Shown piece after piece: positions 38,671-60,296 of a stretch of DNA of 64,000 bases (the stretch's first letter is position 1; each line of letters begins with the position of its first letter). The notes below the pieces were generated by a model that saw only the letters and a program-made list of their open reading frames with translations, did no database searches and was not told the DNA's origin. A program made the translations under genes and the position numbers. The stretch is from Nannocystales bacterium (lineage in GTDB: Bacteria > Myxococcota_A > Polyangia > Nannocystales > Nannocystaceae). Location: positions 640,001 to 704,000 of the forward strand of contig JBOEGF010000018.1 of assembly GCA_050633305.1 (NCBI GenBank), in the 5' to 3' direction.

Positions 38671-40191
38671 GTGGCGTCTCGCATCTGGCTCCAGGCCTGT
38701 TTCGACTTCGCAACGACGCATGCGATCGAGGCCCGATACGTGGATGCGCTGCATGCTTTCGCCTATCCCAACCCCCGGGGGGGCCCGCCTCCGCCACCGG
38801 AACCTCGCTGGGCGGAGGACTTCGAGGCGTTGGAGCAGCTGCGGTGCGCACACCCGCTGGACGAACTACAGCTCCGCACATCCTTGGTCTCGGATCTGTC
38901 GGTCGAGGTCGACGCGGGGCAGGCGGCGATTTTTGCCCGGCGCATTGCCACCGTCGAACGCCAGCTGATCGGCCTGGACGATGCGACCGGGCGGCTGCTC
39001 CGTGTCGGACTCCGACAACGGCTCGAGGGGATTCTCGCTGCGCCACGCCCTCGCGCGCTTCGGGTACGGGCGCTCGCCGACTTCTACTACTCTTTTGCTG
39101 GACGCTGGCTTCACGAGCGAAGCAGCTCGTCACCCGCTCCTTCGCTCGCGGACGCAACCGCTTCGTTGGCGTGGGAGACGGTGTTTGAGGGTGGTGAACT
39201 CGCGGTGATCGACGGTGTGTTCTCCACGGGACCGGTACACGCGAATCTGCTGAGACTGCGTCCCGGTTCGGTGCGTGCTCGGGTGCTGGACCGCCGTGAT
39301 GCGGTCGCCCGCGGGACCCCCTTCGCCGAGCACGTGGATGCGCTGGGTGCTGCGGCTGCGATCTCCGGCGGTTTCTTCTTGTACAGCGAACCCGACATCG
39401 CACCGCCGTCGCAGCGCTTCGACCCCGTGGGACTGCTCGTGTCTGGGGGAGACGTCCTCTCGCCGCCGTTGTTCTGCCGCGGCGCGCTCGTCTTCGATGC
39501 GCAGGGGCGGTGGTCCATCGAACGCCGTGGTCCCGCCGGGGTTCGTGTCGTCCAGGGGAAGGCGTCCGTTGAGCTTGCGTCCGCGCTCACCCGCTGCGCC
39601 TGCGAGCAAGGCCCGGATGTTCCATCCGTCTCGGTCGCGGCGGGCCGGGTCGTCGCGACGGGGCGCCGGCTCGACGTGCCGCTCAATGGCTTCGTCGTGC
39701 CTTCGTCCGGGGCGTGGACCGTGGGTCAGGCCGTGTCGTTCTCGGCGCCGCGCATGGCCGAGGGGACCGAGGTGCACGAGGGGGTCGCAGGTGGTCCACT
39801 GTTGCTCGACGAAGGGGCGCCCTGTTTGGATCTGAGAGCGGAGGGGTTCTGGGGCACGGCTCCTCCTCTGACCTTCTCTCAGGACGAAACCGGCGATCGC
39901 AATACGCTTCCTCGGTTGGCGGCGGGCATCGACGGCGACGGCAATCTCATCCTTGTTGCCGTCGATGGTCGGAACTTCAAACGGGCGCTGGGGATGACCT
40001 TGGGCGAGGTCACTGATCTGCTCTCGAACCTCGGGTGCGTGGTGGCGACGAACCTCGACGGAGGGTCCTCGAAGCGAATGGTCGTCGGTGGAAAGACGCT
40101 CGATCTCGCGTCGACGGAGGTGGAGCAAGGAACCCCCGAAACGGCCAAGGTCCGGCCTGTTCACACCGCCGTCGTGTTCATGACTGCGTGA
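38671..40191 (+). CDS. Phosphodiester glycosidase (NAGPA-like) family protein
   Basis: AAISGGFF, GGPLLL, PRLAAG, VAVDGR, TNLDGGSS. Start estimated. Confidence 0.8.
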   Translation: MASRIWLQACFDFATTHAIEARYVDALHAFAYPNPRGGPPPPPEPRWAEDFEALEQLRCAHPLDELQLRTSLVSDLSVEVDAGQAAIFARRIATVERQLIGLDDATGRLLRVGLRQRLEGILAAPRPRALRVRALADFYYSFAGRWLHERSSSSPAPSLADATASLAWETVFEGGELAVIDGVFSTGPVHANLLRLRPGSVRARVLDRRDAVARGTPFAEHVDALGAAAAISGGFFLYSEPDIAPPSQRFDPVGLLVSGGDVLSPPLFCRGALVFDAQGRWSIERRGPAGVRVVQGKASVELASALTRCACEQGPDVPSVSVAAGRVVATGRRLDVPLNGFVVPSSGAWTVGQAVSFSAPRMAEGTEVHEGVAGGPLLLDEGAPCLDLRAEGFWGTAPPLTFSQDETGDRNTLPRLAAGIDGDGNLILVAVDGRNFKRALGMTLGEVTDLLSNLGCVVATNLDGGSSKRMVVGGKTLDLASTEVEQGTPETAKVRPVHTAVVFMTA

Positions 40192-40202
40192 TAGTGTCGG
40201 GC

Positions 40203-42695
40203 ATGCCTTACGCTTCGTTTCGCGTTCTTGCTGTGTCTGTGTTGCCGGCGGTTGTGTTGTTGGGTTGCGGTGATGACACGACCGCGACCCCGACGGAAGG
40301 GTCCACGGGCACCCCTGAGACGACCACAGACGATGGGACCACGACGGGCGGGGGGACCACGATGGGGTCCACGACGTCCGTCGATCCGGATGGGTCCGGA
40401 TCCGGCTCGACGAGCGCCGACGGGAGCACGACGTCGGGGGGCGAGAGCAGCAGCTCGAGTACCGGGACACCCAACCTCGACCCTGAGGCTGAGGACGACT
40501 TCTATCTGACCGACACCGCCGCAGCTCCACTCGCTGTGGATGCGGCGGCGGGCGTGCTCGGGAACGACGCCGACCCGGAGGGGGAGGACCTCGCGGTCTC
40601 GGACTTCGATGCGGTGAGCGAGGCCGGTGGAACCGTCGAGGTCCAGCCGGACGGTGCCTTCGTCTACACCCCGCCAGATCCATTTTGGGGAGAGGACGCG
40701 TTCACCTACACCACCGCGGACCCCCTGGGCGGCACCGCTCAGGCACGGGTCCGCGTTGCCGTGGCCCCGACCTCGGAGTCGCTCGCGGAGGTCGTCGCTG
40801 CCACGGCTGGAGTCCGGGTGAGCGGACCGAGCTCGGGCGATCGGTTCGGTGTCTCTGTCGCCGGTGGCGCCGATGTGAACGGCGACGGCTTTGCCGACAC
40901 GGTTTATGGAGCTGATGATGCGCTCGCCGACGGTCGCGGCGCGGCCTACGTCGTGTTCGGCGGTCCCGACGCAGCAGCGATCGACGGTGCCGATGTCGAG
41001 GCGGAGACTGGCGGCTTCGCCATCTTGGGACCCGCGGCGGCGTCATCGACCGGGTTTTCGGTCGCCATGCTCGGGGATGTCTCCGGGGATGGCCTCGGCG
41101 ACATCGCGGTCGCCGTGACGGATGGCGGGGGTCCCGGAGGGGTCTACGTCGTGTTCGGGTCCGCTGCACCGGGGACCGTCGATCTCGCCGCGCTCGGCGG
41201 CGATGGATTCGAGATCACCGGGGGAGACTCCTTTGGCCAATCCGTGGCGGCGGCCGGAGATGTCAACGACGACGGGTTGCAGGACATCGTGGTGGGCGAC
41301 CCTGACGCCGGCGGTGGCAGCGGGGCGGCCGTGGTTGTGTTTGGGAAGTCCGGCACGGAGACGGTCGACGGCGCAGCTCCGGGCGCGGAGGGGTTTAGGG
41401 TCGATGGAACGGTTGCCGGAGGCTCTCTTGGGTTTGCGGTTGCGGGCGCCGGTGACGTCAACGTTGACGGTTTCGACGATGTGGTGATCGGTGCGTCGGA
41501 GTCTGCGGTCGTCGGGCGGGTACTCGTCGTGTTCGGAAAACCGGATACCGCCGCTGTGTCGGAGGACGACCTCGCCGTTGCGGCGGATGGCGGCATCAGC
41601 ATCACCGGAGGCGCAGCGTTCGACCTCGTGGGCCGTTCGGTGGCGGGGGCGGGTGACGTCAACGGAGATGGGCGGCCTGACATCATCTTCGGAGCGCCGG
41701 GCATCGATGTCGGAGATGACAACGGTGCGGGTCGTGTCTTCGTCCTGTTCGGTGGCGTGGACATCGAGAGCACGACACTGGATGCCCTCGCGATGGGCGT
41801 CGGGGGCTTCGCGCTCGACGGCGCGAACCAGTTCGATTTTGCCGGCTGGTCGGTCGCGGGGGCCGGCGACGTCAACCGCGATGGGTTCGCAGACATCATC
41901 GTCGGCGCACAAGGAGCGGACACCCCGGTGAGCAACGCCGGCCGGGCCTATGTTCTATACGGTGCGTCCGATCTCGCGGGCGGAAGTCTTGCGGACTTTC
42001 CGGTCGGGGATGGTGGGTTTCATCTCGACGGGGAGGCGTTTGAGCACTTCGCGGGCGGTGCCGTTCACGGGTCTTCTGACCGCAACGGCGACGGGTTCGA
42101 CGACCTCGCGCTAGGCTTGCCCGAAGCCGAGTCCGACGCGGGGTTGGGCTATGTCTGCTTCGGCGGCAACTACGTCGGTGTCGACCGGCTTGGCTTCACG
42201 GCCGAGGCCGACATCGTGGTGGGCAGTGAGGCCGCTGAGACGCTGGTCGGCGGCCGGGGGGACGACGAACTGCAGTCCTTCGGGGGGGCCGATGTCCTGA
42301 GCGGCGGGGCAGGGGACGACGTCGTCAGCATCATCGACGGAGGCTTCTTCCGCATCGACGGTGGAAGTGGAACGGACACGCTTCGACTCGAGGGCAGCGG
42401 GTTCTCGCTCGATCTCGCGAACTTCTTCGACGCTGCGATCAACGGTATCGAGGTCATCGACCTGACCGGTGAGGGCGACAACGGGCTGTTCCTGGGCACC
42501 CATGAGCTGCTCGCACTCTCACCCACCAGCAACACGCTGAGGGTCCTGGGGGATGCCGGGGACCAACTCGTGGCTGACCTCGCCGGGGCGGGCTTCGTGG
42601 ACGAGGGGTCGGACGGAATGGTCACGACCTACTCGAACGGCGTTGCATCCATTGTTGTCGATGATGCGGTCGATGCGTTTGTATCCCTGGACTGA
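40203..42695 (+). CDS. FG-GAP/integrin-alpha repeat lipoprotein with Ig/cadherin-like domain and RTX-like Ca-binding tail
   Basis: Lipobox LLGC; GVLGNDADPEG..DGAFVYTP; seven GDVNGDG.DD-type repeats; GGRGDD/GGAGDD nonapeptides. Confidence 0.88.
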   Translation: MPYASFRVLAVSVLPAVVLLGCGDDTTATPTEGSTGTPETTTDDGTTTGGGTTMGSTTSVDPDGSGSGSTSADGSTTSGGESSSSSTGTPNLDPEAEDDFYLTDTAAAPLAVDAAAGVLGNDADPEGEDLAVSDFDAVSEAGGTVEVQPDGAFVYTPPDPFWGEDAFTYTTADPLGGTAQARVRVAVAPTSESLAEVVAATAGVRVSGPSSGDRFGVSVAGGADVNGDGFADTVYGADDALADGRGAAYVVFGGPDAAAIDGADVEAETGGFAILGPAAASSTGFSVAMLGDVSGDGLGDIAVAVTDGGGPGGVYVVFGSAAPGTVDLAALGGDGFEITGGDSFGQSVAAAGDVNDDGLQDIVVGDPDAGGGSGAAVVVFGKSGTETVDGAAPGAEGFRVDGTVAGGSLGFAVAGAGDVNVDGFDDVVIGASESAVVGRVLVVFGKPDTAAVSEDDLAVAADGGISITGGAAFDLVGRSVAGAGDVNGDGRPDIIFGAPGIDVGDDNGAGRVFVLFGGVDIESTTLDALAMGVGGFALDGANQFDFAGWSVAGAGDVNRDGFADIIVGAQGADTPVSNAGRAYVLYGASDLAGGSLADFPVGDGGFHLDGEAFEHFAGGAVHGSSDRNGDGFDDLALGLPEAESDAGLGYVCFGGNYVGVDRLGFTAEADIVVGSEAAETLVGGRGDDELQSFGGADVLSGGAGDDVVSIIDGGFFRIDGGSGTDTLRLEGSGFSLDLANFFDAAINGIEVIDLTGEGDNGLFLGTHELLALSPTSNTLRVLGDAGDQLVADLAGAGFVDEGSDGMVTTYSNGVASIVVDDAVDAFVSLD

Positions 42696-42747: not shown

Positions 42748-43911
42748 ATGGACATCGCTAGCATTGGACCGCTCGACGTCGAACCCGAGCAGGTTCGCCG
42801 AGCGTTCGAGGCCGTTGCCGACCGACTCGAGGGCCGCAAACTCGGCTTTCTCTACCTTCCGCACGACGTCGACGCGGGGCCGCTGTTGAAGGCCGCGTGC
42901 GACGGTCTCGGGGACCGAGTGGTGGGCGCCACGACGGGCGGGGCGGCCTTTACCGAGCGTGGCTTCACGCGTGACGGTGTCGTCGGAGGGGTGATCGGCG
43001 GAAGCGGATTCGACTATTCGGTGGCCGTGGCCCACGACCTCTCCCCGCGCAAGACACAACGCCTCGAAGACGCGTGTGGGGAGCTGGTCGTCGCTGCGCG
43101 GAAGTCGGTGAGCCGTGTTCCCGCGTTGTTGGCCCTTGGCGACGGTCGCTCCATCGATGGCGTTGCTTTAACCGAGACGCTCAGCCGCAGCCTCCCACCG
43201 CACTGGCGTATCTTCGGCGGGACCGCAGGAGACTCCCTCGTCTTCGAGGACCGATCTCGGGTCTTCGTCGACGGCGAGGTGCTCGACGGGGCGGCGGTCC
43301 TCGTGGGCTTGTTCTCGGACTCGAACTGCGGCGTGGCGGTTGGGCATGGTTGGTCAGCCGTGCAGGGGGCCAAGGAACTCGCGGTGAGTGAGATCGACGG
43401 GCACAACCTGATCGGGCTCGATGGGCGCCCCGCGGCGGAGGTGTTCGGGGAGGAGCTACACCGCTTGGGGTTGGTGCCGGATCCCGCAGTGCTCGTCCCC
43501 GACGCGTCGCGGTATCAATTCGGGGCGCGCTCGCGGTTCGGTGAACTCACGGTTCGCGCGGCACTCGAGTTCCCCGGGGACGGCAGCATCCGTCTCGCCG
43601 GAGGGGTCACCTTGGGGACGGTGCTGCAAGTCGTCGCGACCACGCCGGAGCGCCTGGCCGAATCTGCAAGCGAGGTCGGTCGCCGAGCGGTGGCCGAGTT
43701 CCCCGACGGAAGGACCCCTCGGGGCGGGCTGGTGTTCGATTGTGCCGGGCGCTTGGCCTATTTGGAGGACGCCTACCCAAGTCAGCTGCGTGGCTTCTTT
43801 GCCGGCCACGCGTTTCCTGTCGTCGGCGTGACCTCATACGGTGAGATCGCGAAGTTCGGTGGGAGCCTCGAGGGATTCCACAATGCTACCGCCGTGATGG
43901 CGGCATGGTGA
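42748..43911 (+). CDS. FIST domain signal-transduction protein
   Basis: VVGATTGG, IFGGTAGD, GHGW, LDGRPA, FDCAGR, GVTSYGEI, FHNAT. Confidence 0.85.
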   Translation: MDIASIGPLDVEPEQVRRAFEAVADRLEGRKLGFLYLPHDVDAGPLLKAACDGLGDRVVGATTGGAAFTERGFTRDGVVGGVIGGSGFDYSVAVAHDLSPRKTQRLEDACGELVVAARKSVSRVPALLALGDGRSIDGVALTETLSRSLPPHWRIFGGTAGDSLVFEDRSRVFVDGEVLDGAAVLVGLFSDSNCGVAVGHGWSAVQGAKELAVSEIDGHNLIGLDGRPAAEVFGEELHRLGLVPDPAVLVPDASRYQFGARSRFGELTVRAALEFPGDGSIRLAGGVTLGTVLQVVATTPERLAESASEVGRRAVAEFPDGRTPRGGLVFDCAGRLAYLEDAYPSQLRGFFAGHAFPVVGVTSYGEIAKFGGSLEGFHNATAVMAAW

Positions 43912-43915
43912 TCGA

Positions 43916-45709
43916 TTGAAGGCGCTGCTCAAGGTCGGCTACGGGTGCAACGAGCACTGCACCTTCTGCCACACGCAGGACGTCCGACACATCGACGGTG
44001 CATCCGAGGAGGTCGAGGCCAAGATCGATCGTGCGAAGGCGCTTGGCCATTCGATGGTGGTGCTCTCGGGGGGAGAATCGACGATCCGCCCCGAGTTCTT
44101 CTCTTGGGCCCGCCGCATCGCGAGTCTGGACATGGATCTGGGGTTGGTCACCAACGGTCTGGTGCTCGCCTATCCGGACGTCATCGAGCGGTTGGTCAGC
44201 CTCCGTCTGCGCTACGTCTACATGTCCTTGCACGGCGGGGAGGCGCGCATCCACAACCGCCTGGTTCGGCGAGACTCCTTCGAGGCGGCTGCGTCGGCGT
44301 TGAACAACCTCTCGGGCCGCGGGCTCGACCTGACCGCCAATTGTGTCGTCACGCGGCAGAACGTGGAGCACCTCCGGGGCTTGGTCGACCACGTCGCGCG
44401 GCTGCCCGATGTGCGCTTGAAGTTCTCGTGGGTGGAACCAAAGGGCGGGGCCGCTCATCTCCTCGAGACGTTGGTCCCCCCACTCGAAACCGCTGCTGCT
44501 GCCGTGTCGGAGGCGCTCCGTCGATGGGACGAGACGACCGGACGGCCCTCCCAGGCTGTTCACGGGGGATTTCCGTTGTGCTCGTTGCCTGGCTTCGAGT
44601 CGCGCTACGACGACCTACGCACACATGACTACTGGACCATGAGCGAGATCGGCGAGCCCGATCTGTTCCCGATCGACGATCGAAACAAGTCGAAACCCGC
44701 GCCGTGCGAGCGCTGCAATCTGCGCGGAGGCTGCCCGGGACTGTTCCGACTGTACGGCGAACGCTTTGGTCACGACATGCTCCGCCCGCGAGAGGATGGG
44801 GTCCGGAGTAACAGCATCGACTTCGTCTACGAACACATGCAGACCGATGGGTACGCCGAGGGCGACGCCTGCCCGGTTTGGGCCGCGAGCGCGCGCCCCT
44901 ACGATCGGGACCGTCACGTCTTCGTGCGGCACGGCGCGAAGGTCGGCCGTTATCGCGCGCTATCCCGGGATTTCGACGATGACGAACTCGAGCGCATGAA
45001 GTTCGACACGGCGCAGCTGTACCTCGACGCGTCCCGGAAGTCCGCACCGAACGACTTCGCCCGCGACCTCGTCAAGCTCGACCGTAGCGAGCTGTGTCGT
45101 GAGTGCCCGGGCCACGACACCTGCGCGGGGATGTTCGAGCCGCGCTTCGAGGATGTCTTTGGTCGCGATGACGCGGTCGTCCGAGCACACCTCGGGTCGC
45201 TGCGCGGCGACGTGCTCGACGTGGGCTGCGGCGAGATGCCCTACGCCGACACCCTGAGCACGGGAATCGAGTCCGGTGCGCTGCGATATCTCGGTGTCGA
45301 CCCCGACGCTGAGGCCTTGGCGGCCGTTGCGGCCCGTCTGCCGCCGGTTGAGCTCCACGTCGGCACCTTGGCCAGCATCGACCCGCAGCGAACATTCGAC
45401 CACGTCTTGGTGCTGCGGAGCTGGAACCACCTCCCCGATCCGCACGGCTTCGCGGAGCGCGTTGCGACGATGCTCCGCCCCGGTGGCTCCCTGGTGGTCG
45501 TGGACAACGTCGCCTTCGCCCTGTTGAGGACTCCGGCGCAGACACGGGTGGCCCAGGGGTCGGCCGCCCGCTGGGAGCATTGCCGAAACGATGACGACCA
45601 GCAGGCTCACAGCGTCCTCGAGAGTGCCGGGTTGACGCTGCAGCGAAGGCTGCCGATCCGCCCCTCGGGAAGCAACCAGTGGATGCTCCTGTACACTCGC
45701 CCTGCATGA
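43916..45709 (+). CDS. His-Xaa-Ser system radical SAM maturase (HxsC-like) fused to a C-terminal class I SAM-dependent methyltransferase
   Basis: CNEHCTFC (CX3CX2C), LSGGE, LVTNG, SLHG; Cys clusters CERCNLRGGC and CRECPGHDTC; VLDVGCG, FDHV..SWNHL, LRPGG. Context next to HxsD-like genes and HxS-repeat peptides. Confidence 0.85.
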   Translation: MKALLKVGYGCNEHCTFCHTQDVRHIDGASEEVEAKIDRAKALGHSMVVLSGGESTIRPEFFSWARRIASLDMDLGLVTNGLVLAYPDVIERLVSLRLRYVYMSLHGGEARIHNRLVRRDSFEAAASALNNLSGRGLDLTANCVVTRQNVEHLRGLVDHVARLPDVRLKFSWVEPKGGAAHLLETLVPPLETAAAAVSEALRRWDETTGRPSQAVHGGFPLCSLPGFESRYDDLRTHDYWTMSEIGEPDLFPIDDRNKSKPAPCERCNLRGGCPGLFRLYGERFGHDMLRPREDGVRSNSIDFVYEHMQTDGYAEGDACPVWAASARPYDRDRHVFVRHGAKVGRYRALSRDFDDDELERMKFDTAQLYLDASRKSAPNDFARDLVKLDRSELCRECPGHDTCAGMFEPRFEDVFGRDDAVVRAHLGSLRGDVLDVGCGEMPYADTLSTGIESGALRYLGVDPDAEALAAVAARLPPVELHVGTLASIDPQRTFDHVLVLRSWNHLPDPHGFAERVATMLRPGGSLVVVDNVAFALLRTPAQTRVAQGSAARWEHCRNDDDQQAHSVLESAGLTLQRRLPIRPSGSNQWMLLYTRPA

Positions 45710-46170
45710 GTGCTGCGCCTGGTTTTCCCGACGACGCTGCGGAGATCGATGCGGACGACGGTCGCGTGTCGCTGGTTGTCGATGCCGAGCTGTACCCGCG
45801 TGATGCCGTGTATGCGGCGGTCATGCCGATGCTCGCGACGGCCTTCGTCATGCTCGACCAGTCACCGCAGGGGAGGACCCGCATCGAGCTGCGTCCCCGC
45901 GAAGCCTCCAACCCCGGCGCGTTGCGAGCGATGCTCGGGGGGCTCGCGAACGAGCTGTTGGTCGCGACGACCCGATCGGAGATCGCAAAACGACGGGGAG
46001 GCCTGTTGGAAGCTGTCACGCGCCGCGCCGTCTCGGGCGCGATGGGTGCACCGTCGCTCGACGACCTCGAGGGCTTTGATCTGGATGGGGATGCGTTTGA
46101 AGATCCTCTGGGCATCGCCGATTCGTGGGACCGCAGCCACGGCACGCCACAAGGAAAGGACGACGCATGA
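45706..46170 (+). CDS. hxsD: His-Xaa-Ser system protein HxsD-like
   Basis: ATGA overlap with the rSAM stop; VDAELYPRDAVYAA...LANELL...RSEI pattern recalls HxsD. Confidence 0.7.
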   Translation: MSAAPGFPDDAAEIDADDGRVSLVVDAELYPRDAVYAAVMPMLATAFVMLDQSPQGRTRIELRPREASNPGALRAMLGGLANELLVATTRSEIAKRRGGLLEAVTRRAVSGAMGAPSLDDLEGFDLDGDAFEDPLGIADSWDRSHGTPQGKDDA

Positions 46171-46406
46171 GCACGCTTCGATTCCACAAGGAGCTGTATT
46201 CGGGGATGGCTGTCGATGCCGCGATGAAGCGCTTCGAGCGGTTCGCGACCTTCGAGGTCGCCGATGACGCCAGCCACTGGACCGTGGTGGTGAAGGCGGA
46301 ACGCCCGGAGCAGCAGACGCAGCTGGAGCGGGAGCTGGGTAACTTCGCGTTGGGACTCACGATCGAGCGCGGTGGTCCGGACGTCGCCGAAGACGCCTCA
46401 GACTGA
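46167..46406 (+). CDS. Second, shorter HxsD-like protein
   Basis: ATGA overlap, AAGGA RBS; FHKELYSGMAVDAAM...ELGNFAL parallels the upstream protein. Confidence 0.6.
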   Translation: MSTLRFHKELYSGMAVDAAMKRFERFATFEVADDASHWTVVVKAERPEQQTQLERELGNFALGLTIERGGPDVAEDASD

Positions 46407-46452
46407 TATGCTGGGCGGGCGCGACGGTTGAGTGGCGCATTGGAGTGCGAGG

Positions 46453-46776
46453 ATGGACGACGACCGCAAGACAGATGATGGCGACGCTTTGCCGAGCTTT
46501 CGCGCGGCGGCGTCATCCGTGCTGGGCACCGACGCCCGTACGATCTCCGCCCGCGCTCGCTCCGCCGCCGATGAGCCCCCAACTGCCCCGGGAGCTGTGA
46601 TCGGGGGGGAAACGGCGGCCGGTGGTGGCCCTTCCCACTGCAGCCACGGGTCGCACGGCAGCCACGGGTCGCACGGTAGTCACGGATCGCACGGCAGCCA
46701 CGGGTCGCACGGCAGCCACGGGTCGCACGGCAGCCACGGGTCGCACGGTAGCCACGGGTCGCACGGCTCCTGGTAA
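46453..46776 (+). CDS. hxsA: His-Xaa-Ser repeat precursor peptide 1 (HxsA-like), core HCS(HGS)14W
   Basis: 107 aa; acidic leader, then 15 His-Xaa-Ser triplets and terminal Trp. Confidence 0.9.
   Translation: MDDDRKTDDGDALPSFRAAASSVLGTDARTISARARSAADEPPTAPGAVIGGETAAGGGPSHCSHGSHGSHGSHGSHGSHGSHGSHGSHGSHGSHGSHGSHGSHGSW
46636..46770 (+). repeat. 9/18-nt coding tandem repeat (CACGGGTCGCACGGCAGC)n encoding HGS
   Basis: 135 nt, 15 triplets, with alternating TCG/AGY Ser codons. Confidence 0.95.
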
Positions 46777-46886
46777 GAGGGGGCTGTAGGCCCCAGTGCG
46801 AGGCTCAAAAACGCGGTCCATCCAGCCCACGGGTCGCCCGGATCAAGCCGGCAAGCCTGATATCATCCACGAAGGGGGCGCTTCCG

Positions 46887-47189
46887 GTGAATGATCGAAA
46901 CGAAGACCAGACAGCGGACGAGACGAACGACGACACGATCGAGTTGCCGTCGTATCAAGCCTCGCCGTCTGCGGTCCTCGGCGAGAACGCCCGCGAGATT
47001 TCCGCGCGTGCCCGCGCACAGGCCGACGAGCCGCCGGCGGGCAACGACACGATCAACGGGGGCGGAACAATGTTGGCGCCCAGCCACTGTAGTCACGGCT
47101 CGCACGGCAGTCACGGCTCGCACGGCAGCCATGGCTCGCACGGAAGTCACGGTTCACACGGAAGTCACGGAAGTCACGGGAGCTGGTAG
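46887..47189 (+). CDS. hxsA: His-Xaa-Ser repeat precursor peptide 2 (HxsA-like), core HCS(HGS)10W
   Basis: 100 aa, GTG start after GAAGGGGG; leader paralogous to precursor 1; 11 triplets and terminal Trp. Confidence 0.9.
   Translation: MNDRNEDQTADETNDDTIELPSYQASPSAVLGENAREISARARAQADEPPAGNDTINGGGTMLAPSHCSHGSHGSHGSHGSHGSHGSHGSHGSHGSHGSW
47085..47183 (+). repeat. 9-nt coding tandem repeat encoding HCS(HGS)10
   Basis: 99 nt, with more synonymous divergence than the first array. Confidence 0.95.
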
Positions 47190-47243
47190 CCGAATGAGCC
47201 GCCCGATCGAAATCCGGAGGTGGGTGTTCGAGCCCAGCGCTGC

Positions 47244-49520
47244 ATGAGCGACGAATCGCCCAGCAACGAGGGGGCTCCGACCCCGAGCGAAGAGACCGGG
47301 ACAGGTCCCGCCCCGACCTCCGAGAGCGAAGCCGTGCGGCGTCGGCTCACGATGTTCGTGCAGCCGCGCACAAAGATGGAGAGCGCAAAGGGTCGCCGAC
47401 GGGTGCTCTACGTGGGCACCAACCCTCGTGAGTCGGCGAACCTGCAGGAGCTGCTCAACGATGCGGTCGACCCTGGGTTCGGTGTCGAGCATGCGCCCGA
47501 CGAGACGATCGCTGTCGAGATGCTGAATCGCTCGGACAAAGCGTTTCAAGTGGTTGTCGTCGAGCTCGATCGCGACCGACGAATGTGGACTCGGCTGGTC
47601 CGCGACCGACGACTGCCCAGCATTCCCCTGATCGTTGTCGACCACCGGGGCACGCCTGAGGAGCGCTCTCTTCGTCGATCTCAGCTCCTCAAGGAAGGCG
47701 CGGCGGGGTACGTCCGCCGTAGCGAGCTCTCCGGAGCCATGCTCGAGGCGCTTGTGTTCGCTGCGCTCGAGCGCGCACAGATGCGTCAGGCCCTCAGCGA
47801 GGTCCAAGAACGATTCGCCCTGGCGGTCCGCGGAGCCAACGACGGGGTGTGGGAGTGGATTCTCGAAACCGGTGAGATGCACTTCAGCCGGCGATGGCGA
47901 GAGTTGCTCGGCTACGGTGTCGACGACCTCTCCAACTCGGTCAACGAGTGGTTTGACCGCGTCCACGCCGAGGACATCGCGGCCCTCAAAGAGGACATCG
48001 ACGCCCACCTCAATGGGGACAGCCCGTACCACGAGAGTGAGCATCGGATTCGGGCCAGCGACGGAACCTACCGCTGGGTGATCTCGCGCGCCGTGGCCCA
48101 GCGTCAAAACGGACGTCCGGTTCGGATGGCCGGGTCGATCACCGACACGTCCGACTACCGTCTGCGCGAGGAAAAGATCCGAGAGGAGTCGCGTCAGGAT
48201 GCATTGACCGGACTTCCCCGTCGGGAGCCGTTCATGGAACAGCTCGCGCGGGCGGTTCGACTCGCGGACACCGACGAGACGTACTGCTTCACCGCCTTGA
48301 TGGTCGATGTTGACCGCTTCCGGTGGCTCGCGGACTCCATCGGACACCAAGCGGCGGACGGCATGCTCGCCATTCTCGCCCGCCGCCTGGTCGCCTGCGT
48401 CCGCCCTGGGGACACCGTCTCCCGCTTTGGTGGGGACAAGTTCGCCGTGCTGCTGGAGAACCTTCGCGATGTCGACACGGCGACAGACATCGCCAACCGG
48501 ATTCGCCTGTCCGTGCACGAGCCGTTCGACGTCGAAGGACAGACGGTCTACACCACCGTCTCGATCGGGCTGACGACCTCGGACCGAGCGTACGCCGATG
48601 TCGACGAGGTCATCAGCGATGTCGCCGCTGCCGCGAACAAGGCCAAGGAGCGCGGACAGGATCGCCACGAGGTGTTCGATACGAAGATGCGCATCGACGC
48701 ATTGACGACGCTTCGCCTCGAAGTTGCGTTGCGTCAGGCGGTGGAGCGCGAGGAGTTCGAGCTGCACTACCAGCCGATCGTCGATCTCAAGTCCGGCGCG
48801 CTGATGGGCTTCGAAGCGCTCACCCGCTGGCGTCACCCACGTCGTGGCATCGTCTCACCGGCCGAGTTCATCCCCGTGGCCGAGCAGACTGGGCTCATCA
48901 TTCCGATTGGGCGGTGGGCGATTCGTGTCGCGCTCGAACAACTCGGTCGTTGGCAGGCGACGCTCCCGAGCAGCAACGGTGGCAAGCCACTGTCGATGAG
49001 CGTCAACCTCTCGGGCCGACAGATCGCGGACCCGCGGTTGCTCGACGAGATTCGTACCGCGATGACCGAGAACAACATCGCCGAGGACACGTTCCGCCTC
49101 GAGCTGACGGAGTCCGTTCTCATGGACAACTCGGAGTCCGTCTCGCGGACGCTGGCGACCTTGCGGTCCAACGGCGTGCGGATCTGGGTCGACGACTTTG
49201 GTACCGGGTACTCGTCGTTGAGCTACTTGCATCGGTTCCAGTTCGATGGGCTCAAGATCGACAAGAGCTTCGTCGACGCGTTGGACGGGTCGCCACAGGG
49301 CGCGGCGATGATTCGAACGATCCTCAGCCTGGCGTCGAACCTCGGCGTTGAGGTGATCGCGGAGGGGATCGAGTACACGGTCCAGGCCGACCAACTCCTC
49401 GAGCTCGGATGTGTGCGAGGCCAGGGCTACTTGTTCAGCCGGCCGATCGCTGCAGCGAAGGTTCAGGGATACGTCGCCGGAGGCTCAACCGAGCCCGCGG
49501 GTCCGCCTGTCGCATCGTAG
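47244..49520 (+). CDS. Receiver-like/PAS/GGDEF/EAL c-di-GMP signalling protein
   Basis: GANDGVWEW PAS, DALTGLP, RFGGDKF, LHYQPIV..FEALTRW, DDFGTGYSSLSYL, KIDKSF, AEGIE. Confidence 0.92.
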   Translation: MSDESPSNEGAPTPSEETGTGPAPTSESEAVRRRLTMFVQPRTKMESAKGRRRVLYVGTNPRESANLQELLNDAVDPGFGVEHAPDETIAVEMLNRSDKAFQVVVVELDRDRRMWTRLVRDRRLPSIPLIVVDHRGTPEERSLRRSQLLKEGAAGYVRRSELSGAMLEALVFAALERAQMRQALSEVQERFALAVRGANDGVWEWILETGEMHFSRRWRELLGYGVDDLSNSVNEWFDRVHAEDIAALKEDIDAHLNGDSPYHESEHRIRASDGTYRWVISRAVAQRQNGRPVRMAGSITDTSDYRLREEKIREESRQDALTGLPRREPFMEQLARAVRLADTDETYCFTALMVDVDRFRWLADSIGHQAADGMLAILARRLVACVRPGDTVSRFGGDKFAVLLENLRDVDTATDIANRIRLSVHEPFDVEGQTVYTTVSIGLTTSDRAYADVDEVISDVAAAANKAKERGQDRHEVFDTKMRIDALTTLRLEVALRQAVEREEFELHYQPIVDLKSGALMGFEALTRWRHPRRGIVSPAEFIPVAEQTGLIIPIGRWAIRVALEQLGRWQATLPSSNGGKPLSMSVNLSGRQIADPRLLDEIRTAMTENNIAEDTFRLELTESVLMDNSESVSRTLATLRSNGVRIWVDDFGTGYSSLSYLHRFQFDGLKIDKSFVDALDGSPQGAAMIRTILSLASNLGVEVIAEGIEYTVQADQLLELGCVRGQGYLFSRPIAAAKVQGYVAGGSTEPAGPPVAS

Positions 49521-58919: not shown

Positions 58920-60296
58920 GTGGTCGACCGATCTGCGCTCGCACGCCTCCCCAAGGTCGATGCCGTTCTCGACGCCGAGCCGCTCTGCGGAGCCGGTTGG
59001 CATCGGCCGCTGGCTCGCCGGGCTGTGCAGGCTGCGCTCGAGGAACTGCGTCGCGCCGTCCTGAGCGGAGCATCGGTCGACATCCCCGATGCCGCTGCAC
59101 TCGCGACGTCCGTTGGACGAACCCTCGAGGGGTGGGCTCGCCCTCGACCGATGCGGGTGATCAACGCGACGGGCGTCATCCTGCACACCAACCTTGGTCG
59201 GGCGCCGCTCTCCCAAGCCGCGGTCGATGCGATGGCCGATGCCGCGCTCTATTGTGACCTCGAGGTCGGGCTCTCCGACGGGAAGCGCGGTTCGAGGTTC
59301 GCGTGGTTGCGTCCGTTCATGGGCGCGGTCATCGGCGCCGCGGATGTTCACGTGGTGAACAACAACGCGGCCGCGCTCTTGTTGGCCTGTACCGTGTTGG
59401 GTGCGCCGGGCGGGGTCGTGCTCTCCCGGGGCCAGATGGTCGAGATCGGCGACAGCTTTCGCGTTGCGACCATGGCAGGCGCTGGCGGCATTCGTGTCGT
59501 TGCCGTGGGAAGCACCAATCGTACCCACCTGCGGGACTACGAGCAGGCTCTCGATGGCGACGGCCCTGATGCGCAGTGCGTGCCCGCTTCGGCATTGCTG
59601 TGGTGCCACCAGAGCAACTTCAAGCAAGACGGCTATGTCAAAGAAGTTGGGCTGGCCGAACTCGCGAAGCTGGCCAAGGCCAGGGACGTGCCCCTCATCG
59701 CCGACCTGGGCAGCGGCTCGCTGGGTGCCGGCCTGCCCGCAGTCGAACCGACGATCGGTGAGTACCTCGAACAGGGCGTCGACCTTGTCCTTGCCAGCGG
59801 CGACAAGCTCCTTGGCGGACCTCAGGCGGGGATCATTGCTGGCACGGCAAAGTACGTCGAGCGCTGTCGTCGGTTCCCGATGGCCCGCGCGCTACGCCCC
59901 GATAAGACCACGCTTGCGGCTCTTCACGCGACGTTCGCGGCGCACGCCCGAGCTGGAACTCCATCGATCCCGCTCCACGAGATGGTCGCTTTGGACGAGG
60001 CGGGGCTCCGGGCCCGGGCCGACGCAATCCGTCTGGCTCTGGGGTGGGGAGAAGAGCGGATCGTGCCGCTGAAGGCGGCGATCGGGGGCGGGAGCTTGCC
60101 GGGCGATACCATGCCGAGCGTGGGTCTTTGGGTTCCGTGCGCCAAGCCGTCGGCGACAGCGCGCGCACTTCGTCTCGGCGAGCTGCCGGTCATCGGGCGC
60201 ATCGAAGACGAACGATTGTTGCTCGATCTTCGCACCGTCGACCCGCGGGACGATGCCGCCTTGCGCACGGCGCTCGCAACCTTGGCCGATGCCTGA
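58920..60296 (+). CDS. selA: L-seryl-tRNA(Sec) selenium transferase
   Basis: VINATGVILHTNLGRAPL, VNNNAAA, SRGQMVEIG, VGSTNRTH, DLGSG, SGDKLLGGPQAGII. Confidence 0.93.
   Translation: MVDRSALARLPKVDAVLDAEPLCGAGWHRPLARRAVQAALEELRRAVLSGASVDIPDAAALATSVGRTLEGWARPRPMRVINATGVILHTNLGRAPLSQAAVDAMADAALYCDLEVGLSDGKRGSRFAWLRPFMGAVIGAADVHVVNNNAAALLLACTVLGAPGGVVLSRGQMVEIGDSFRVATMAGAGGIRVVAVGSTNRTHLRDYEQALDGDGPDAQCVPASALLWCHQSNFKQDGYVKEVGLAELAKLAKARDVPLIADLGSGSLGAGLPAVEPTIGEYLEQGVDLVLASGDKLLGGPQAGIIAGTAKYVERCRRFPMARALRPDKTTLAALHATFAAHARAGTPSIPLHEMVALDEAGLRARADAIRLALGWGEERIVPLKAAIGGGSLPGDTMPSVGLWVPCAKPSATARALRLGELPVIGRIEDERLLLDLRTVDPRDDAALRTALATLADA

Follow-up and report, generated by a model that had tools for sequence, protein, structure and literature searches.

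The HxsABCD system of Escherichia coli, the canonical His-Xaa-Ser (HXS) system, blocked 110 of 113 phages at DNA entry, and all four genes were required (PMC13128918, Li et al., Nat Commun 2026). As presented in the parts of that report available to us, canonical systems are hxsD-hxsB-hxsC-hxsA operons whose effector has five basic repeats and a peptidoglycan-binding domain, and 99.7% of them fall in Pseudomonadota. Cleavage and export of E. coli HxsA depended on HxsBCD with no protease or exporter among the four proteins, a mass change of +8 Da (+C-4H) was mapped to SHRSS, and HxsC and HxsD were connected by pull-down; HxsA forms inclusion bodies and the chemistry was not reconstituted. The same parts mention neither a methyltransferase nor Myxococcota. 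Here we analyze a five-gene cassette at positions 43916 to 47189 of a 64,000 nucleotide stretch of DNA (the window) from a Nannocystales bacterium (GCA_050633305.1, contig JBOEGF010000018.1, positions 640,001 to 704,000). An original prediction, made from the letters of the window, had seen in it a myxobacterial His-Xaa-Ser peptide system with a radical S-adenosylmethionine (SAM)-methyltransferase fusion, two HxsD-like proteins (D1 and D2) and two precursors; its statement that the function of such systems is not established is outdated for the canonical system, which was shown to be anti-phage in 2026.

Hidden Markov model (HMM) searches agreed that this is a myxobacterial His-Xaa-Ser peptide system, the HxsA4 and HxsD-like models both being passed. 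Both precursors pass HxsA4 NF038313 (99.6 and 64.4 bits, cut-off 55), and the family is therefore already known; the HxsA4 precursor, D2 and HxsC4 families are all catalogued. The prediction had proposed a genome search for HxsB, and this gene was found outside the cassette locus on another contig (C14:59129-60610) with 570 bits against a TIGR03978 cut-off of 370, pairs of this kind being given below as score/cut-off. Judged by its gene content, the cassette is a precursor-bearing fragment of a dispersed type-4 His-Xaa-Ser (HxsA4) pathway with partners in trans. No study of the type-4 branch was found in the literature searched (most subscription journals lie outside it), where HxsA4 and HxsC4 had zero occurrences in the papers listed; the portions of PMC9062424 at hand mention HxsB and HxsC in passing only, and a term search of the accessible text of two recent surveys of myxobacterial biosynthetic clusters (PMC12766979, PMC13445942) returned no His-Xaa-Ser terms.

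The cassette and its precursor peptides

The features of the cassette are as follows.

43916..45709, + strand: radical SAM-methyltransferase fusion, 597 aa, TTG start (Pfam, NCBIfam)
43916..44800, + strand: radical SAM half of the fusion, residues 1-295 (conserved cysteines, fold match)
44801..45709, + strand: Cys4 domain and methyltransferase of the fusion, residues 296-597 (conserved residues; a separate gene in many relatives)
45706..46170, + strand: D1, HxsD-type putative adaptor, 154 aa, acidic C-terminal tail (diverged HxsD)
46167..46406, + strand: D2, HxsD-like putative adaptor, 79 aa (NF038315)
46404..46412, + strand: TGnTAnnnT element overlapping the D2 stop codon, putative promoter of precursor 1 (motif scan)
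46453..46776, + strand: HxsA4 precursor 1, 107 aa, 61-aa acidic leader (NF038313)
46636-46776, + strand: core of precursor 1, HCS(HGS)14W
46858..46866, + strand: TGnTAnnnT element, putative promoter of precursor 2 (motif scan; also in loci L050-L055)
46887..47189, + strand: HxsA4 precursor 2, 100 aa, GTG start, 66-aa acidic leader (NF038313)
47085-47189, + strand: core of precursor 2, HCS(HGS)10W

The five same-strand genes, their ATGA coupling and the two cores were borne out in coordinates and domains. ATGA overlaps at 45706-45709 and 46167-46170 join the fusion, D1 and D2, and the TTG start of the fusion lies 4 bases past the stop of a FIST-domain gene. GC content overall and at third codon positions is the same in the cassette as in the flanking genes. 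The genome (11.0 Mb, 66% GC, 92% complete) has Nannocystaceae as its closest named relatives.

Each core comprises 11-15 uninterrupted neutral triplets and a terminal Trp, with no Arg or Lys. Serine codons of the TCN and AGY families alternate through the repeats, which are therefore maintained at the peptide level. A six-frame scan of the 11-Mb genome gave no further comparable His-x-Ser run, only one irregular three-unit match that crosses a stop codon. Across relatives the core reads H(C/G/A)S, HGS units, W; the 39 complete cores have 9-20 triplets and a single terminal Trp. A subtype of HxsA4 ends in HGQW instead, and by hand count the methyltransferase was found in 18 of 21 genomes with HGSW at the end of the top precursor versus 2 of 8 with HGQW there. 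The HGQW loci L025, L027, L029, L036, L037, L039, L042 and L046 are operons with the twin-arginine partner described below. The precursor at L038 (G285:C152) has 37 His-x-Ser triplets, and neither methyltransferase nor twin-arginine partner was found in that genome.

The sole match of the precursors in a Pfam scan was Collagen, below cut-off, and no peptidoglycan-binding domain was detected. Their leaders are acidic, with maximum hydropathy of 0.82 and 0.39 and no hydrophobic stretch. Duplication of HxsD and of the precursors had been put forward as distinctive; two HxsD-like genes turned out to be the norm in HxsA4 operons, and the tandem precursor pair is indeed a local duplication, present in 2 of 80 loci. 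The element TGnTAnnnT, which we take to be an extended -10 promoter, occurs in 35 of 72 windows upstream of precursors versus 96 of 5500 random windows (1.7%) and 4% of shuffles; since the control windows are mostly coding, this indicates a likely promoter, not a system-specific motif. A sigma-70 scan gave no full promoter, and no terminator was found 3' of the precursors.

The fused radical SAM-methyltransferase

The fusion matches Radical_SAM (PF04055) over residues 6-158 (79.8/29.5) and Methyltransf_11 (PF08241) over residues 434-528 (44.6/21.2). It falls below the cut-offs of HxsC4 NF038332 (79.3/500) and HxsC TIGR03977 (64/267.9) and is thus HxsC-like only; no cyclophane-forming family is among its best 25 NCBIfam families. 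Among the 120 relatives listed, 119 are full length, at 51-88% identity, and the query and 49 of these relatives were aligned. All 50 sequences keep the radical SAM motif CX3CX2C (C11/C15/C18), four further cysteines of the same half (C222/C264/C267/C273), which may form an auxiliary Fe-S site, and the Cys4 domain (C319/C394/C397/C403). In the methyltransferase G437 and G439 are likewise kept in 50/50, as is Asp or Glu at 435 and 462; with its Rossmann-like fold, glycine-rich motif I and an acidic residue after strand 2, this half has the marks of a class I SAM-dependent enzyme.

The AlphaFold model of the fusion has a predicted local distance difference test (pLDDT) value of 90.5. Its methyltransferase fold best matches 1vl5 (Z 19.5, root-mean-square deviation 2.8, 160 residues), and the closest solved folds of the radical SAM half include viperin and SkfB, both at Z 18.8, and BlsE; these matches are generic and indicate no substrate. 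The Cys4 segment and the auxiliary cysteines share a C...CxxCx5C spacing, but internal duplication was not supported (BLAST E 2.6), and an Atlas search with the Cys4 domain returned nothing at 0.9 or above.

Stand-alone Cys4-methyltransferase open reading frames of about 300 aa occur in genomes G100, G125 and G165, in the last directly 3' of the precursor. As this half is a separate gene in several genomes, the fusion represents just one form in which a recurring component appears. No Pfam or NCBIfam model is dedicated to the fusion, the stand-alone methyltransferase or the twin-arginine partner. Cultured carriers of the fusion are Nannocystis exedens, N. pusilla and Enhygromyxa salina.

Occurrence was scored in 401 Myxococcota genomes, HxsA4 being counted at E<=1e-6 (149/401) or at the cut-off (125/401, about 31%); the weaker matches may reflect low sequence complexity and not true homology. 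Thirty-two genomes carry the full fusion (three candidates scored per genome), 31 of them HxsA4-positive, and the Cys4-methyltransferase half, fused or stand-alone, is in 92, of which 89 are HxsA4-positive against the base rate of 149/401. Because related genomes are not independent these counts are given without p-values. HxsC4-like matches numbered 6-14 in all 16 HxsA4-positive genomes scored, and 0, 0, 2, 2 and 0 in five chosen negatives. The expectation that the radical SAM-methyltransferase co-occurs with His-x-Ser peptides thus held in 31 of 32 genomes, and in 40 of 80 loci.

HxsD-type proteins and a predicted complex

Of the two proteins called HxsD-like, D2 passes NF038315 (70.5/41) while D1 is diverged and stays below the HxsD cut-off (TIGR03976, 19.9/50), on a long branch (2.2); the positional orthologue of D1 in Enhygromyxa salina does pass (67.8). 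D1 and D2 are homologous by hhalign (probability 93%, E 2.7e-7). The D1 model is a small alpha/beta fold for which no clear match emerged (best Z 6.8), and PqqD, the fold of RRE leader-binding proteins, was absent among the 50 matches listed.

A model of D2, D1 and the fusion as one complex scored 0.52, while no control, including the one with D1 replaced, exceeded 0.00. This lends weak support: the mark used is reached by 116 of 157 true pairs and 2 of 215 false pairs, but only 18 of the 157 true pairs, and both false ones, pass at 0.60 or below. Contacts agreed between separate runs to at least 19%, and the partners had a pLDDT of 84 or more. By homology to HxsD, which is bound by HxsC in E. 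coli, D1 and D2 may be adaptors that bind the radical SAM-methyltransferase.

Pathway genes in relatives and elsewhere in the genome

We took the neighbourhoods of 80 of the 193 confirmed fusion loci; those with a named taxon are from myxobacteria or Deltaproteobacteria. Within 10 kb of the fusion were found D1 (53/80), D2 (48/80), HxsB (43/80), a (HxS)n peptide (40/80), an HxsC4 group (29/80, one representative scoring 599/500) and an HExxH enzyme (19/80), and D1, D2, HxsB and the peptide occur together in 33 loci. Restricting the count to the 61 loci that extend 5 kb or more downstream gives D1 43, D2 40, HxsB 37, peptide 35 and all four 29. The usual order is radical SAM-methyltransferase, D1, D2, HxsB, HxsA4, HxsC4. 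In the six closest relatives (73-89% identity) HxsB and HxsC4 are not in the locus, as here.

In this genome HxsB is preceded by a third HxsD-like gene (31.4 bits, TIGR03976 cut-off 50) and a double radical SAM gene (C14:61089-63611; L016:6093-8612, minus strand) in which a B12-type domain is joined to an HxsC-like domain, the B12-type assignment resting on weak family matches (Sden_1168 63.5/575, PhpK 52/600); this double radical SAM group is present in 19 of 80 loci. Five more HxsC-like genes, all with CX3CX2C, start at C14:48256, 73617 and 82107 and at C18:604109 (two radical SAM domains) and 616168. Seven HxsC4-like matches reach E<=1e-12, the best at 107.7 (cut-off 500), and the best HxsC paralogue scores 112.8 (TIGR03977 cut-off 267.9). 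After the HxsC-like gene at C14:73617 lies an alpha-ketoglutarate (aKG)-HExxH oxygenase (95/40). The reported single radical SAM gene in place of the usual pair therefore describes this locus only, given HxsB and six HxsC-like genes elsewhere, and in relatives HxsB usually sits in the operon. A stand-alone cassette with one radical SAM enzyme was accordingly rejected: throughout the clade HxsB and HxsC-like genes persist at other sites in the genome. In the genomes of five close relatives 6-8 HxsC-like matches were present in 5/5 and HxsB in 4/5; HxsB adjoins the double radical SAM gene in those four, and the fifth has the latter at a contig edge.

FastTree trees placed the fusion with one Nannocystaceae lineage (support 96-98) and HxsB with an Enhygromyxa/Nannocystis lineage (99); HxsB and its HxsD (C14:59129-61092) group with a different lineage from the window fusion (43916-46406). 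These placements suggest a mosaic of two merged clusters with reciprocal losses. The approximately unbiased test gave p 0.034 (32 rows), which is suggestive only as the group was named after the trees had been seen.

Several results weigh against a single dispersed pathway of this kind. None of HxsA4, HxsB or HxsD is found near the fusion in 27 of the 80 loci, several of them full length, and 10 have no associated gene whatever. With the query used no methyltransferase was found in 60 of the 149 HxsA4-matching genomes, and the methyltransferase is therefore not universal. HxsB scores far below the cyclophane-forming families (AmcB 47.9/425, YhhB 51.2/445, GrrM/OscB 46.8/310). The HxsC4 cut-off is passed in none of the six clade genomes (this one and the five relatives), and since HxsC4 is in 29/80 loci the set present here may have gaps or have been rewired. 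That an incomplete assembly alone explains the gap is less likely, other HxsA4 genomes passing in 5/5 and 3/5.

The number of enzymes bears on two alternatives. In the first, the heavily modified product would be secreted as a weapon, or form a surface fibre, in predation or competition, resembling proteusins such as polytheonamide. The many radical SAM genes, the B12-type radical SAM domain, the class I methyltransferase and the Fe/aKG oxygenase would suit such a product, as would the putative dedicated precursor promoters and a predatory phylum; but no conserved ABC exporter, peptidase or immunity gene was seen among the recurring neighbour families inspected, the twin-arginine route stops at the periplasm, and an invariant core would be unusual under an arms race, so that we regard a weapon as most improbable. 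The second makes the repeat peptide a scaffold or sacrificial source of a small molecule or cofactor (from the C-terminal Trp, for example), or has the fusion act away from HxsA4. Here 7-14 radical SAM paralogues seem excessive for a three-residue repeat, the single terminal Trp and the tracking of HGSW over HGQW by the methyltransferase fit, and the closest solved radical SAM folds include the small-molecule enzymes viperin and BlsE. A fixed unit in freely varying number fits a polymeric product, however, and the final effector of E. coli requires each repeat in the account available to us (PMC13128918); we give this alternative the least credence of all.

Side observations on these genes are as follows. 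The 492-aa HxsC-like gene within C14:45881-51529 (L015:5882-11530) has an S9 peptidase gene 5' and an ABC-2 transporter gene 3'. At L107:8430-10001 and 13 similar loci an HxsC-like radical SAM protein is fused to a peroxiredoxin-like domain (PrxQ 60.8/260), usually just 5' of the radical SAM-methyltransferase; this genome has no orthologue. Genes for a UbiA prenyltransferase, a polyprenyl synthetase and a desaturase lie inside the HxsA4 cluster of G165 (L146:2079-7034).

A twin-arginine partner and the probable route of export

A single-copy gene on the contig of the window, about 68 kb upstream of the cassette (C18:615581-616147; L019:5585-6148, minus strand), encodes a member of a family of 170-200 aa proteins with a twin-arginine pattern and a hydrophobic stretch, a putative twin-arginine translocation (Tat) signal. 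A regular expression flags the pattern in 28 of 29 homologues; the protein has no Pfam or NCBIfam family, and the Tat-signal models of both databases do not match this genome's copy. It occurs in 26 of 80 fusion loci and in 94 of the 401 genomes, 88 of these HxsA4-positive. Among 32 same-contig pairs picked by eye, partner and precursor share a strand in 29, with the partner 2.2-2.6 kb upstream. In six of ten loci fetched the partner heads a compact operon in the order partner, D1, D2, HxsB, HxsA4; in one it immediately precedes the precursor, and three loci, from partner-lacking genomes, have no partner. A TatC is encoded in the genome (208/25). An Atlas search with the partner gave nothing at 0.9 or above; its best structural row (template modeling score 0.49, part of a myxococcotal radical SAM cluster) was set aside, an HMM run on the radical SAM set giving no confirmation. 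Just after the partner gene lies a short HxsC-like open reading frame without CX3CX2C (C18:615081-615584; L019:5085-5585, minus strand). Such short forms (family F34) recur in relatives and are possibly a non-catalytic subunit or a remnant.

In partner-lacking genomes it is the precursor leader that looks signal-like: its start is basic, and it contains an IT(R/K)(R/K/G/S)QA motif, a stretch of hydrophobic residues and an ALA/AEA site. The maximum 12-residue hydropathy of the leader is at least 1.2 in 23 of 25 partner-lacking versus 4 of 31 partner-bearing genomes, a threshold set post hoc on sets that cover 12 and 16 families of non-independent kin, which counts against leaning on it. Of these 25 genomes, 20 came from the 39 that are methyltransferase-positive and partner-negative and the rest from loci already in hand, and none of the maxima was set by the few wrong-frame rows. 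A divergent partner was not found in five partner-lacking genomes at E<=0.01 (0/5), which does not prove absence. The leader alignment forms a gradient from TRRQA with hydrophobic part and ALA down to the ISARA relic of the window, which lacks the hydrophobic part. The twin-arginine site of signal-bearing leaders is often RK, KK, RG or RS, a further point against export by this route, and may therefore be a recognition motif instead of a Tat signal.

The original prediction allowed that the product may stay intracellular; the partner and the leader pattern argue against this, as does the export of E. coli HxsA from a cassette without an exporter. Hitchhiker Tat export, in which a signal-less protein leaves with a twin-arginine partner, is known for enzyme heterodimers in the text available to us of 10.1101/2023.11.02.564894. 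Here the precursor would hitchhike because its own signal has decayed. Alternatively the partner could serve in the periplasm as a receptor, or as an anchor in place of the peptidoglycan-binding domain; as carrier or as anchor, it places the product outside the cytoplasm. Gene patterns thus suggest that the product probably leaves the cytoplasm, and that in this genome it rides on the Tat-signal partner is a possibility a little short of even.

A self-contained cassette, in which the single radical SAM-methyltransferase and the two HxsD-type proteins modify the precursors and the product is cytoplasmic, would explain why this enzyme is the sole one kept beside the precursors in the clade (L050-L055), and it draws on the weak complex support for D1, D2 and the fusion, on leaders without a hydrophobic stretch and on a cassette without exporter or protease. 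We consider it improbable, as the clade retains HxsB and HxsC-like genes in trans, HxsB is inside the operon in 43/80 loci, the E. coli system requires all four genes (PMC13128918, as far as available to us), and the Tat partner and the leader pattern speak for export.

Proposed mechanism and function

The dispersed pathway would work as follows. Its first step starts from what can be read in the genes, namely intact radical SAM and methyltransferase motifs, catalogued precursors and partners in trans. Second, the dispersed enzymes would act jointly on the (HGS)n core with D1 and D2 as adaptors for the fusion, and that the enzymes act together in this way, D1 and D2 binding the radical SAM-methyltransferase, is very likely. 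Third, repeated His(i)-to-Ser(i+2) cross-links would be made together with one-carbon addition and oxidation, akin to the +C-4H of E. coli HxsA; +C-4H is 7.969 Da, or one methylene and three two-electron oxidations. The fused class I methyltransferase would be the carbon donor, a dedicated methyltransferase being plausible in that role in the type-4 branch, and the HExxH enzyme would hydroxylate or cleave. For this chemistry, proposed by analogy, we see the chances as evenly balanced. The available text of PMC11002830 gives His C2 and Ser C-beta each as known link partners, i to i+2, in triceptides; as the radical SAM proteins here are below the cyclophane-family cut-offs, the likeness to triceptides is an analogy. 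Enzymes of the aKG-HExxH type hydroxylate pre-formed cyclophanes or cut backbones (PMC12636437, in the portion available), and by analogy backbone cleavage by the HExxH enzyme could replace a protease. Fourth, the product would be exported, here on the Tat-signal partner. The first, second and fourth steps taken together are somewhat favoured.

Fifth, a rigid His-rich polymer at the envelope would stop phage DNA entry. For this speak the homology to HXS and the extracytoplasmic destination. Against an anti-phage role, the core is neutral and has no anchor domain whereas the E. coli model relies on basic repeats, defence neighbours are absent around the locus, HxsA4 is near fixation in one family (28/29), and the HxsB and methyltransferase trees largely match; near fixation and matching trees would suit stable inheritance better than the spread of a mobile gene for defence. 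A defence island was rejected, PADLOC matches falling on 2 of 54 window proteins, both of them generic fold matches, and no integrase or transposase was found among 46 proteins checked. A search of IMG/VR with the fusion found no phage-borne copies and GenBank phages gave no match; three phage pattern matches were discarded as their translation gave no His-x-Ser repeats. An envelope anti-phage role, drawn from homology, is the foremost conjecture on function, and we propose it tentatively. The complete proposal is doubtful as a whole: throughout the phylum, 7-14 radical SAM enzymes would combine with a methyltransferase and the Fe/aKG oxygenase to make of (HGS)n a rigid chain with many cross-links and methyl groups, and a dedicated but unnamed Tat carrier, having replaced the precursor's signal peptide, would export it as an envelope barrier to phage DNA.

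The same pathway and export might instead yield a metal-binding polymer, a possibility also raised by the original prediction, as a buffer or scavenger of Cu, Zn or Ni. A neutral core with 9-20 His triplets in the 39 complete cores, and 37 in one further case, would suit this, as would stable inheritance and a lipoprotein family with MopE-like repeats in 19/80 loci, one member of which passes PF11617 (31.4/27). A second member is below that cut-off (15.9/27), however, the genome's own copy lies apart on contig C23, the recurring neighbour families inspected included no conspicuous transporter, and cross-linking or methylation of the rings may take away His ligands; we hold a metal polymer to be unlikely, though worth considering.

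Neighbouring genes

Upstream of the cassette, window 42748-43911 encodes a FIST_N/FIST_C protein with a weak NosP match (35/450), probably co-transcribed with the fusion and adjoining it in none but the closest relatives, and 5' of it window 40035-42695 encodes an adhesin-like 886-aa protein with Big_9/cadherin, FG-GAP and RTX calcium-binding repeats. Just 3' of the precursors, window 47220-49520 encodes a PAS-GGDEF-EAL protein that comes after HxsC4 in related Nannocystaceae clusters. Membership of the FIST and EAL/GGDEF genes in the system was rejected: found in 6/80 and 11/80 loci, mostly in Nannocystaceae or close relatives, they were taken as local synteny. A SelA (selenocysteine synthase) gene at window 58920-60293 adjoins a ComEC-family gene and an Fpg glycosylase gene.

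Significance and comparison with known systems

Three findings are new: the methyltransferase half tracks HxsA4, so does the unnamed Tat-signal protein, and leader type is reciprocal to the presence of that partner. Searches of the literature turned up no report of this chemistry, or of a modified ribosomal peptide exported as a Tat hitchhiker. That the family is catalogued limits the surprise. His-Xaa-Ser chemistry and export become testable through the many enzymes, the methyltransferase and the putative export partner. The HxsA4 precursors are short, acidic and uniform, so that mass shifts should give readable ladders, and a dedicated methyltransferase is a testable source of the added carbon. 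The Tat partner with the reciprocal leader pattern gives a concrete hypothesis for exporting a signal-less modified peptide, and the system offers a way to ask whether HXS-type defence reaches beyond Pseudomonadota.

In the available text of PMC11002830, the core motif of triceptides (three-residue cyclophanes; HaaB, YhhB, ScaB, MscB) is aromatic-X-X with a C-beta acceptor at i+2, a pattern that His-Gly-Ser fits; the differences are that no radical SAM protein here reaches a cyclophane-family cut-off, that the substrate is a homopolymeric repeat, and that a His-to-Ser link is not among the linkages found there. The aKG-HExxH hydroxylases (ChlBH, PflC/PosC) have one counterpart in the set described here, and ChlH requires a pre-formed cyclophane (PMC12636437, in the portion available). 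With the Tat hitchhikers, the heterodimers of NiFe hydrogenase and formate dehydrogenase in the source cited above, the system shares a signal-less protein, a candidate twin-arginine partner and the presence of TatC; it differs in that the cargo would be a modified ribosomal peptide.

The NCBIfam type-4 set is matched in that the precursors and D2 pass their models and HxsB passes in trans, with an operon in relatives that holds all of them; it is not matched in that no HxsC4 passes in this genome or the five close relatives and D1 is below the HxsD cut-off. Like canonical HXS, the system has a HxS-repeat substrate, HxsC-related radical SAM proteins, putative HxsD adaptors and an operon without a protease; its HxsB is 38% identical to a plasmid-borne canonical HxsB, and the layout of Aeromonas HxsA (signal, acidic spacer, L-x-A-G/Q, HxS core) is common to signal-bearing HxsA4 leaders. 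Unlike canonical HXS, with its four-gene operon and its effector with signal, basic repeats and anchor, both of which are absent here, this genome has precursors with neither anchor nor signal, seven HxsC-like genes, a methyltransferase, an HExxH enzyme and a Tat partner, all dispersed. The system is an unstudied cousin of the E. coli HXS system, and this locus represents a rearranged part of a family that is already catalogued.

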